From Candidatus Aenigmatarchaeota archaeon (GTDB taxonomy: Archaea > Aenigmatarchaeota > Aenigmatarchaeia > GW2011-AR5 > JAGGXF01): a stretch of 35,604 nucleotides of DNA. Below are positions 31,142 to 32,701 of the stretch, piece by piece. Within the stretch, counting starts at the first letter, position 1. Each line of letters opens with the position of its first letter. Where the stretch lies: contig JAOZPR010000006.1 of the NCBI GenBank assembly GCA_029932645.1, forward strand, positions 1 to 35,604, in the 5' to 3' direction. The translations under genes and the position numbers were made by a program. A model generated the notes under the pieces. That model made no database searches and was not told the DNA's origin. It saw nothing but the letters and a program-made list of their open reading frames with translations.

Positions 31142-32362
31142 CTATTGGCAGGCTATGCCATACGTCGTTGTCCAGGAACTAGATATCGCAGACGTGAGTG
31201 GCACAGTGACATTTGCTGTGAAGTTTGCCTGTATGCCGTTGCTCTCGTCACTGTCTTTATCCGTGAGCAAGATTTCAGCGCCACCTGAGTAGGCATTTGC
31301 TATGGTAAAACCGCCTGACTGCGTTGAATTATATATTTTAACGTTTGAAACTGCTATGGTCGTGTCGCCGCTGCTCGCCGTCGTTGTCCAGTCAGCCATT
31401 TTTATTTTTAGTGTACAGTTTGCTGGATACGTGATATTAAAGAAGAATCCCCAGTCGTTTTGACCAGACTTTAGCACGGCTGTGGCATCCCGTCTGGTTG
31501 TGTCTTCAACAAGCGTTATTGTGTTGTTTATGAATATGTTTTTAGATATGTCCTGCGATAGATTCACATTACCAACATTATCATAAACCCTAATCGAAAT
31601 ATTAAATGTTCCGGAATTGTTTGTTATCTGATTCGTATCAAAATTGCTCCAATATAGATTATTACCAAGGCTGTTAAGTGTAAAAGAAAACCAAGAGCTA
31701 TTGTCGGTCGCGTTGGAAAACATGACCGAAGCATTCTTAAGCCCGCTCCCGCCGTCAGACGCGTTGATTGTTATATTTATTATGCCATTGGTTGTGCTGC
31801 CTTCTGTTATGTTACCCCACTTGCTGTGAGTTATGTTTTTCAGCGAAAGTGTTGGTACCGCCGTGTCTATACCTGTTATGTTTGTTGTGCTATTGGTCGA
31901 AGAACTGTTGTCCATTGTGGTAATGTTCCAAGTCTGATTAACTTCGCCAGTCTGCTCAGCTATGGCATTGAACCAGATATAAGCTGTCTGGCTCGGACCA
32001 AGCAATGGCGTGGCTGATTTGTTGACACATACGATTTTCGATATGTTTGTTGCATTCGGGCCAGTTGCATTGTATCCCTCACAGCTCCAGTTTGTCAGGG
32101 ATATGCCTATAGATGAATTATAAACAGTGAAATTCTTTGTGGCCCCGTCAAAAGGCACAGATATGTTTATCTCTGTTACATTATTGTTGCCGGTTGGGTT
32201 GGTAATGGAAAAATTATATGTCGCGTTTGTCGTCTCATTGACCCAATAATTGTTGTAAGTGTTGTTCCCTGTTATGACCACAGAAACGTTTGGCGCTTCG
32301 ATAGCTAAAACTCCCACGGCGATTAAAAACAAAGCAAGCAATATCTCAACAATTCTTTTCAT
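31142..32362 (-). CDS. Secreted, unanchored, extremely N-x-S/T-rich surface protein A (406 aa)
   Basis: The ATG at 32362 is preceded by GGAG 5 nt upstream. Signal-like MKRIVEILLALFLIAVGVLAIEAP, and about 35 N-x-S/T sequons by my count. The listed TTG extension to 32446 runs into the tRNA gene, so I reject it. Confidence 0.7.
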   Translation of the reverse strand: MKRIVEILLALFLIAVGVLAIEAPNVSVVITGNNTYNNYWVNETTNATYNFSITNPTGNNNVTEINISVPFDGATKNFTVYNSSIGISLTNWSCEGYNATGPNATNISKIVCVNKSATPLLGPSQTAYIWFNAIAEQTGEVNQTWNITTMDNSSSTNSTTNITGIDTAVPTLSLKNITHSKWGNITEGSTTNGIINITINASDGGSGLKNASVMFSNATDNSSWFSFTLNSLGNNLYWSNFDTNQITNNSGTFNISIRVYDNVGNVNLSQDISKNIFINNTITLVEDTTRRDATAVLKSGQNDWGFFFNITYPANCTLKIKMADWTTTASSGDTTIAVSNVKIYNSTQSGGFTIANAYSGGAEILLTDKDSDESNGIQANFTANVTVPLTSAISSSWTTTYGIACQ

Positions 32363-32437
32363 AATATCTCCGAATAATTTATGGTCGCATGTTATATTTA
32401 TGTTTTTTTGAAGAAGCCGAAAACACCCCCGGCGGGA

Positions 32438-32521
32438 ATTTCGCAACCCATCTTTGTAATAGCGAAGCCTAAGTTTCTTTTGGGTGAACTTAAGCCTTTT
32501 CTTTACAAAGAAAAGGGTTAG
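32438..32521 (-). other. tRNA-Arg intron 2 (non-canonical 59/60 position in the T-loop, 84 nt) with a strict hBHBh' motif
   Basis: GCGGG / TTCG / [AAC] / TAACCC ... GGGTTG / CGAA / [ATT] / CCCGC. Splicing after the second nucleotide of each bulge restores the T-loop TTCGAAT. Confidence 0.8.
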
Positions 32522-32543
32522 TTCGAACCCGCGACCCCTTGCT

Positions 32544-32630
32544 CTCTCCGAATGAAGTTTTGATCATATCTCTGCCGAAGCAGAAATCATCTCACCTCCA
32601 TATCGTCATAGTCTGGCTGATAGCAACCGT
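32544..32630 (-). other. tRNA-Arg intron 1 (canonical 37/38 position, 87 nt)
   Basis: A 4-bp central helix CTCC(32-35)/GGAG is flanked by 3-nt bulges TAA and AGA. The internal hairpin is TCTGC-TTCG-GCAGA. Confidence 0.75.
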
Positions 32631-32693
32631 TAGGAGGCAAGTGCTCTATCCAAACTGAGCTACGGGGGCATCAATTAAAAATAATAACTATAA

Positions 32694-32701
32694 TATTTAA
32701 A
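32694..32701 (-). promoter_or_regulatory. TATA box TTTAAATA at -32 to -25 of the tRNA-Arg 5' end
   Basis: It is the reverse complement of tatttaaa at 32694-32701. Spacing is typical of archaeal promoters. Confidence 0.55.

Follow-up and report, generated by a model that had tools for sequence, protein, structure and literature searches.

Transfer RNA (tRNA) genes with multiple introns, and intron 'transposition', have been described in Thermoproteales (Sugahara 2008, Fujishima 2010, reviewed in PMC4090602; figures in bioRxiv 10.64898/2026.10.13.758758). Here we describe a tRNA-Arg(CCU) gene on the minus strand of a 35,604-nucleotide stretch of DNA (the window; contig JAOZPR010000006.1 of assembly GCA_029932645.1) from a Candidatus Aenigmatarchaeota archaeon. 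The gene is interrupted at position 37/38 (intron 1) and, in the T-loop, at position 59/60 (intron 2). It is highly probable that this is a functional gene, apparently the sole tRNA-Arg(CCU) gene of a small Aenigmatarchaeota (DPANN) genome, with two bulge-helix-bulge (BHB) introns, of which intron 2 belongs to a recently copied or converted family of T-loop introns and intron 1 is older and carries a kink-turn (k-turn) module.

As in Thermoproteales, tRNA genes here can contain several BHB introns, some at non-canonical positions, and near-identical introns occur in genes of different isotypes within one genome. However, the host lineage belongs to DPANN Aenigmatarchaeota rather than TACK, the splicing endonuclease (EndA) is a single alpha4-like protein with a Nanoarchaeum-type insert rather than an (alpha-beta)2 enzyme that bears the crenarchaeal loop, a single site, 59/60, hosts every near-identical copy, and an exact presence/absence difference separates two species of one genus. 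The DPANN alpha4 'L3' systems (Kaneta et al. 2018, PMC5829648) share with this locus the superphylum, the enzyme type, the position of the insert and, according to the DPANN passages of that paper, heavy disruption of tRNA genes that standard predictors miss. The sampling of that study covered Pacearchaeota, Woesearchaeota, Nanohaloarchaea and Mancarchaeum; its DPANN passages describe no tRNA genes of Aenigmatarchaeota, and include neither this gene nor the 59/60 family nor the intron-1 module.

Archaeal pre-tRNA-Trp carries a box C/D guide RNA within its intron (Clouet d'Orval 2001; Singh 2004; see PMC4090602 and PMC7994747 for summaries). Intron 1 resembles that intron in its 37/38 position, in k-turn boxes that adjoin a stretch complementary to the anticodon arm of the host tRNA, and in the presence of fibrillarin and Nop5 in the genome. 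It differs in that the host is tRNA-Arg(CCU) and the guide role is putative, that only the internal k-turn, of C'/D' type, stands out clearly and is capped by a hairpin instead of a loop, and that the nucleotide at D'+5 is 31, not 34 or 39. The junction of intron 2 is similar to the BHB junction of permuted tRNAs in Thermofilum pendens and Cyanidioschyzon merolae (Chan et al. 2011, PMC3218864), which also lies between T-loop nucleotides 59 and 60 and is built on the T-stem, although permuted genes are processed via a circle, whereas intron 2 is a plain cis intron in a collinear gene.

A multi-intron tRNA gene in a DPANN archaeon and a 59/60 BHB site are both of kinds already known (PMC5829648, in its DPANN passages; PMC4090602; PMC3218864), and the first two of these sources agree with a statement in the original prediction, made from the DNA letters of this locus, that multi-intron tRNAs occur in Thermoproteales and in DPANN lineages. 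What is new is that a T-loop intron has recently been copied or converted among tRNA genes, for which an exact presence/absence control exists, and that intron 1 holds a conserved k-turn module. A 2026 census (bioRxiv 10.64898/2026.10.13.758758) found almost no near-identical introns in different tRNA genes of Asgard archaea, and regarded the route by which introns arrive as open. With the present genome, a DPANN lineage whose endonuclease is alpha4-like joins the few cases of near-identical introns in different tRNA genes, so far clear mainly in Thermoproteales, and the orthologue without intron 2 in a species of the same genus forms a natural before-and-after pair for studying intron arrival or loss.

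Structure and splicing of the tRNA-Arg(CCU) gene

The gene runs from 32669 to 32424 and consists of three exons and two introns, with 75 of its 246 nucleotides exonic, including the discriminator. Its parts are as follows.

32694..32701, minus strand: TATA-box-like TTTAAATA, read from the sequence, with its centre ~28 nucleotides upstream of tRNA G1
32631..32669, minus strand: exon 1, 39 nucleotides, G1-A37, with the acceptor 5' strand, the D-arm with A20, the anticodon-stem 5' strand and the loop CU-CCU-A
32544..32630, minus strand: intron 1, 87 nucleotides at 37/38 (the canonical position), relaxed BHB motif
32522..32543, minus strand: exon 2, 22 nucleotides, A38-A59, with the anticodon-stem 3' strand, the variable loop, the T-stem 5' strand and the T-loop UUCGAA
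32438..32521, minus strand: intron 2, 84 nucleotides at 59/60 (T-loop), strict hBHBh' motif
32424..32437, minus strand: exon 3, 13 nucleotides U60-U72 (32437-32425) plus G73 (32424), with the T-stem 3' strand CCCGC and the acceptor 3' strand CGGGGGU

The original prediction had called this locus a tRNA-Arg(CCT) in which 75 of 246 nucleotides are exon, with introns of 87 and 84 nucleotides at these two sites, and every piece was found where it had been placed. It had also claimed that the gene is easily missed, and indeed ARAGORN calls no tRNA anywhere in the window, and Rfam gives no match to the unspliced locus at the gathering score; a relaxed search reaches 13.8 bits, with a false alignment of the T-arm. 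In contrast to the unspliced locus, the 75-mer spliced in silico is called tRNA-Arg(cct) by ARAGORN, with stems of 7 (acceptor), 4 (D), 5 (anticodon) and 5 (T) bp, and removal of intron 2 alone is enough for the intron mode of ARAGORN to recover tRNA-Arg(CCU) with a canonical 87-nucleotide intron. The conserved nucleotides U8, A14, G18G19, U33, G53, U54, U55, C56 and A58 all stand at their expected sites in the spliced form, so that the predicted pairing of every stem and placement of the tertiary bases hold as well. CCA is not encoded, and TTTT directly follows G73 (32423-32420). By archaeal promoter geometry, TTTAAATA would be a candidate promoter element of the gene.

Identity of tRNA-Arg depends on C35 in the anticodon and A20 in the D-loop. 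The anticodon here is C34 C35 U36, and the D-loop is AGUUUGGAUA, with A at position 20. The sequence carries both identity-relevant nucleotides, and arginine identity is predicted.

Evidence for the boundaries of intron 2 comes from comparison with the sole same-genus genome compared (G001; the genome of this locus is G000, and G002 serves as outgroup). The orthologue in the congener (locus L017) lies in the same gene neighborhood, is 90% identical, and contains intron 1 but not intron 2. Its T-arm is uninterrupted and reads ...GGUUCGAAUCCCGC..., which is exactly the joint predicted between exons 2 and 3. At the level of sequence, this orthologue proves the 59/60 boundaries of intron 2. The exons of the two genes are one base apart (C4 in this genome and U4 in the congener, in exon 1), exons 2 and 3 being identical, and intron 1 of the congener is homologous, 85 nucleotides long and 83% identical. 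A spliced form scoring below tRNA thresholds would have spoken against the gene; the spliced form is called a tRNA, as said, and the congener's orthologue scores 49.3 bits with RF00005 (Rfam tRNA), whose gathering score is 29. The same orthologue bears on a G1-U72 wobble at the top of the acceptor stem, an oddity that had been pointed out from the sequence and that we reproduce: the wobble is also present in the congener, and so is not a sequencing error.

The DNA is reproducible, since contigs from four studies extend over the junctions of the locus. One of them, a 151-nucleotide metagenome contig that comes from an independent study, is identical to 32405-32555 at every position and includes both intron-2 junctions and flanks. 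A contig of run X5 that joins 32522 to 32407 resembles a congener-type allele without intron 2; only its two sides are known, and it was given no weight.

The fold of the 246-nucleotide precursor, computed without constraints, contains all four tRNA stems and the BHB motif of intron 2, with a minimum free energy of -91.1 kcal/mol (z = -4.43), and 0 of 200 shuffled sequences fold as well. For intron 2, a BHB scan finds H of 4 bp, h of 5 bp and h' of 6 bp, which is a strict hBHBh' motif reproduced by the unconstrained fold. It is composed of the 5-bp T-stem, a central helix of U54-G57 with a sequence near the intron 3' end (UUCG/CGAA), the bulges AAC and AUU (each divided after the second base) and the inner helix UAACCC/GGGUUG. 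For intron 1, the scan gives H4 h5 h'0, a relaxed motif with a central helix (C32-C35/GGAG) and the anticodon stem. A BHB motif therefore exists at every junction, in strict form for intron 2 and in relaxed form only for intron 1.

The genome is a 718-kb metagenome-assembled genome (MAG) of 43 contigs, estimated as 89% complete. The type of splicing endonuclease had been named in the original prediction as a feature worth recording, and one alpha4-like EndA is found (C27:32447-33070, 207 amino acids), which contains both endonuclease domains, PF02778 and PF01974; no second subunit with PF01974 or PF02778 is detected in the genome at E values up to 10. Its closest solved relative is the homotetrameric (alpha4) enzyme of M. 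jannaschii, relative to which it has a 6-residue basic insert in common with the alpha (catalytic) subunit of N. equitans. According to the DPANN passages of Kaneta et al. (2018, PMC5829648), alpha4-type EndA enzymes of several DPANN lineages have an insert of this sort ('L3'), which is linked there to a high degree of tRNA gene disruption, and we infer that the present EndA cuts the relaxed motif of intron 1. The RtcB ligase is also encoded (C9:195-1496), as are Nop5 and fibrillarin.

In the proposed processing route, transcription from the gene's own TATA box would yield a precursor of ~246 nucleotides. The single alpha4-like EndA with its Nanoarchaeum-type basic insert would cut four sites in two independent BHB motifs, one relaxed and on the anticodon arm (37/38), the other perfect and on the T-arm (59/60). 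RtcB would then join the three exons, and CCA would be added afterwards.

The k-turn module of intron 1

Two adjoining elements are recognized within intron 1.

32591..32602, minus strand: antisense element UAUGGAGGUGAG, which can pair with tRNA C27-C35 (9 bp, including 2 G-U)
32561..32590, minus strand: box C'/D'-like k-turn module, made of AUGA (D'-like), a 7-bp hairpin with a UUCG loop, then UAUGAUCA (C'-like)

The 37/38 introns of tRNA-Arg(CCU) in 13 genomes from at least five families follow one pattern: (G)GAGGUGA, one base, NNGA, a hairpin, and N-R-U-G-A-N-N-A. The core GGAGGUGA of the antisense element is invariant among these 13 genomes. The sequences of the module hairpins are unrelated across the same genomes, but their pairing is maintained, with compensatory changes between this genome and its congener. 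An internal C'/D' k-turn is recognizable, its C'6:D'1 pair being G-C in 10 of the 13 genomes, C-G in the outgroup, and C.A in the two species of this genus. Intron 1 is older than intron 2 and common across the order. Among tRNA-Arg(CCU) genes of 19 related genomes, a 37/38 intron is present in ~15, a 59/60 intron in 8 and both in 4, and two genes (L042 in G002 and L046 in G035) have three introns, in the D-loop, at 37/38 and at 59/60. In one metagenome contig (run X1), an exon 1 closely related to this one is followed by a different 39-nucleotide sequence that replaces 83 nucleotides of intron 1 (window 32546-32630); a relative bearing another intron 1 shares that sample.

Terminal boxes are less clear than the internal ones. 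Candidates for a terminal box C/D pair (AUGACGA upstream, CGGA or GAGA downstream) occur in family f1 only and are not conserved in other families, and the matches of Rfam C/D models to intron 1 are far below threshold (sR60, 15.2 bits with a threshold of 50; SNORD5, 15.7 bits with a threshold of 55). Two parses of intron 1 as a full box C/D RNA with 12-nucleotide spacers were rejected, one that uses the UUCG hairpin as guide because this hairpin shows compensatory changes in the congener, the other because its box D candidates are not conserved in the outgroup or in other families.

By the D'+5 rule, the antisense element points to C31 of its own tRNA. We know of no 2'-O-methylation at tRNA position 31, and the rule thus does not lead from this intron to a known 2'-O-methylated nucleotide. 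However, this build is also seen in the tRNA-Trp, tRNA-Met and tRNA-Leu(CAA) introns of this genome, where D'+5 falls on C34 in all three. In Haloferax and Pyrococcus, experiments have shown that the tRNA-Trp intron guide targets C34, which in Pyrococcus has also been predicted as a C/D target for tRNA-Trp, Met and Leu(CAA) (PMC4090602, PMC7994747). Hence we think that the intron modules are real k-turn ribonucleoprotein (RNP) sites. The three modules look like candidate intron-borne guides for wobble methylation, and the module of tRNA-Arg(CCU) may be a methylation guide, a folding aid bound by L7Ae, or both. A review described the guide in the tRNA-Trp intron as a unique example; judging by the k-turn and antisense modules present in introns of Arg(CCU), Trp, Met and Leu(CAA), guide RNAs carried by introns seem commoner than thought. 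In the other three introns, those of tRNA-Trp(CCA) (C29:1107-1230, plus strand), tRNA-Met(CAT) (C29:4817-4945, minus strand) and tRNA-Leu(CAA) (C10:23582-23744, plus strand), the order is antisense, UUGA, hairpin and N-R-U-G-A-Y-A-W.

Intron 1 could also be primarily the gene of a trans-acting box C/D-type guide that is released by splicing, perhaps as a circle, and acts on a target elsewhere, such as the 16S anti-Shine-Dalgarno end, with the tRNA serving mainly as host. This is compatible with a functional tRNA-Arg(CCU) gene, and we hold it possible, if on balance unlikely. The k-turn module and invariant GGAGGUGA in 13 genomes would fit such a role, as would the presence of Nop5 and fibrillarin, the similar build of the Trp, Met and Leu(CAA) introns with D'+5 on C34, and guide base A8, which remains A in four genomes (G009, G015, G019, G023) where tRNA position 28 is C. 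GGAGGUGA would pair with the usual 16S anti-Shine-Dalgarno end. The MAG contains no match to archaeal small-subunit rRNA with which to compare it, no trans target was found in the genome for either of two putative guides, and the lack of a convincing terminal box C/D pair, the Rfam scores far under threshold and a D'+5 nucleotide (C31 of the own tRNA) that is not a known methylation site all speak against a trans-acting guide. So does the state of the fibrillarin gene (C27:6696-7339, minus strand), which is matched in two frames, in pieces that overlap and of which one has '2 TGA stops inside', with Nop5 directly upstream; the two-frame match could be a frameshift, an assembly error or recoding.

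A k-turn-like hairpin was also noticed outside introns, in the 43-nucleotide spacer between tRNA-Asp(GUC) and tRNA-Lys(UUU) (C42:2039-2067, plus strand), where it consists of AUGA, a 6-bp hairpin and GAUGAUUU.

Intron 2 and its relatives in other tRNA genes

BLAST detects four further copies of intron 2 in its own genome, each at 59/60 of a different tRNA gene: Gln(CUG), Gly(CCC), Asp(GUC) and Gly(UCC). Intron 2 is identical to the Gln(CUG) copy at 82 of 84 positions (98%) and to the Gly(CCC) copy at 79 of 84 (94%), and the Asp(GUC) and Gly(UCC) introns are identical to each other at all 91 positions (100%), while the exons of the host genes differ. Two more divergent 59/60 introns reside in tRNA-Gln(UUG) and in a class-II-like tRNA of the same genome. 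The near-identical introns show the level of similarity expected for a copied intron family, which is at least 80-90% identity across isotypes of one genome. The 98% and 94% identities to the Gln(CUG) and Gly(CCC) introns indicate that intron 2 has, as judged from sequence, undergone recent copying or conversion among the tRNA genes of this genome. The paralogues also covary with their hosts: T-loop G57 is accompanied by the intron end ...GCGAAAU, and A57 by ...AUGAAAU or ...AUGAAAA. Matching of A57 or G57 by the intron 3' end means that the central helix is maintained.

Comparison with the congener places this spread in time. The orthologous Gln(CUG) 59/60 introns of the two species are 51% identical (84 nucleotides here, 52 in the congener), whereas the congener's own 59/60 copies are 92% identical to each other. 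The presence of introns differs in both directions, the 59/60 intron of Arg(CCU) being found only in this genome and that of Ala(CGC) only in the congener, where it is 60 nucleotides long (L039); the tRNA-Ala(CGC) gene here has none (C7:2960-3047, minus strand). Near-identical copies within genomes, diverged orthologues and presence that differs both ways indicate spread or homogenization within genomes after speciation.

A part of intron 2 is more widely distributed.

32474..32521, minus strand: conserved module, the first 48 nucleotides of intron 2, with a 10-bp hairpin (CCUUUUCUUU/AAAGAAAAGG) plus GUUCACCCAAAAGAAA

Of 201 genomes sampled from the phylum, 19, all belonging to the same class, have BLAST matches to this module, with identities of 79-91%, in introns of D-loops, anticodon loops and T-loops and sometimes in intergenic DNA. 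Metagenome contigs are ~15-fold deeper over the module than over its flanks. In other families of the class the module, there the hairpin CCUUUUCUUU/AAAGAAAAGG plus GGUUCACCCAAAAGAA, was seen at L131-L140 in genomes G127, G043, G118, G095, G210, G004, G018, G065 and G207. In at least one case it lies directly 3' of a protein gene. The hairpin amounts to an oligo-T run read from either strand.

Just 4 nucleotides of intron 2 have to pair with the universal T-loop (UUCR), and so it fits any tRNA. The 59/60 intron might be a currently mobile BHB intron that homes to T-loops. Its mobility could depend on the 48-nucleotide module, for instance by way of reverse splicing with EndA and RtcB and subsequent copying back into DNA. 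We regard this as speculative and rather doubtful. If the intron is mobile, a genus pair with exact two-way presence and absence would be a direct test system for the arrival of archaeal tRNA introns.

The tRNA set of the genome and the neighboring gene

Introns are the rule among tRNA genes of this genome. Without its intron mode, ARAGORN reports 2 candidates in 718 kb, both of which are actually interrupted genes, and of 15 Rfam tRNA matches in the genome, 12 are 88-155 nucleotides long and the other three are low-scoring and 51-67 nucleotides long. Standard finders miss nearly every tRNA gene here, so automatic annotation of Aenigmatarchaeota will wrongly report missing tRNAs; mechanical open reading frame (ORF) calls, for their part, run into unannotated tRNA genes.

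We scanned the whole genome by taking every GTTCRA site, removing up to 2 BHB-bounded stretches and testing the product with ARAGORN, a procedure that is noisy for three-intron genes. tRNA-Arg(CCT) was found at this locus only. An uninterrupted tRNA-Arg(CCT) elsewhere would have told against the original prediction, but this T-loop-seeded scan revealed neither an uninterrupted nor a second copy in the 89%-complete genome. A tRNA-Arg(UCU) gene lies at C27:43320-43440, and tRNA-Arg(UCG) is also present elsewhere. AGG is the second most used arginine codon, accounting for 25% of arginine codons and 11.4 per 1000 codons. Two other arginine calls by ARAGORN were rejected: an intron-mode 'tRNA-Arg(cct)' at C42:2073-2229 has the anticodon loop CUUUUAU and is a tRNA-Lys(UUU) with introns, and a 'tRNA-Arg(gcg)' at C5:5371-5489 reads as tRNA-Cys(GCA).

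The locus could instead be a pseudogene, that is, a once-functional tRNA-Arg(CCU) gene inactivated by a repeat (intron 2) in its T-loop, with AGG read by tRNA-Arg(UCU) or by an unassembled copy. Intron 2 is indeed a multi-copy repeat without which the congener manages, a tRNA-Arg(UCU) gene exists, and the genome is incomplete. However, the insertion is bounded by a perfect BHB motif, and the intron 3' end is matched to this particular T-loop. The exons differ by one base from those of the congener despite diverged introns, and both the promoter-like element and the T-run terminator are intact. Moreover, the same element interrupts tRNA-Asp(GUC), Gln(CUG) and Gly(CCC), of which no other copies were found. 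We consider a pseudogene very unlikely. An assembly chimera, in which the repeated intron 2 led the assembler to join exons 1 and 2 of one tRNA to the 3' exon of another, is more improbable still: assembly-graph contigs of several runs do break within 32463-32531, where depth rises ~15-fold, but the independent 151-nucleotide contig crosses both junctions, and the 3' exon pairs 7/7 with the 5' acceptor strand and is identical to that of the congener's gene without intron 2.

Several points weigh against a functional tRNA-Arg(CCU) gene with two introns and a recently copied or converted intron 2. G1-U72 is odd for an elongator tRNA. Intron 1 lacks a second outer helix and has no helix beside the bulge of its 5' splice site, which consequently sits in a loop, and cleavage there requires an enzyme of broad specificity, a presumed property of this EndA. 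A beta subunit was not detected, but it could lie in the part missing from an 89%-complete genome. The search for a second tRNA-Arg(CCT) covered genes with at most 2 BHB introns and GTTCRA T-loops. None of the 22 sequencing runs listed as containing the stretch is an RNA run, and splicing, its order and the mature ends are accordingly all deduced. The runs include hydrothermal vent and sediment metagenomes, which point to the habitat of this archaeon. Finally, the tRNA-Arg(CCU) gene of the outgroup contains a different 59/60 intron, which makes the direction of change ambiguous: intron 2 was either gained in this genome, or lost in the congener and converted here.

A protein gene adjoins the tRNA gene.

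31142..32362, minus strand: neighboring protein gene, with an in-frame ATG at 32362 giving 406 amino acids, from the ORF list and the sequence

The mechanical ORF call at this locus encodes 434 amino acids (31142-32446, minus strand) from a TTG start and overlaps the 3' end of the tRNA gene, as had been noted from the letters. The true start is likely to be the ATG at 32362 and not the TTG at 32446. This ATG is preceded by a TATA-like CATAAATATAAC, and the 406-amino-acid protein opens with a hydrophobic N-terminal stretch.

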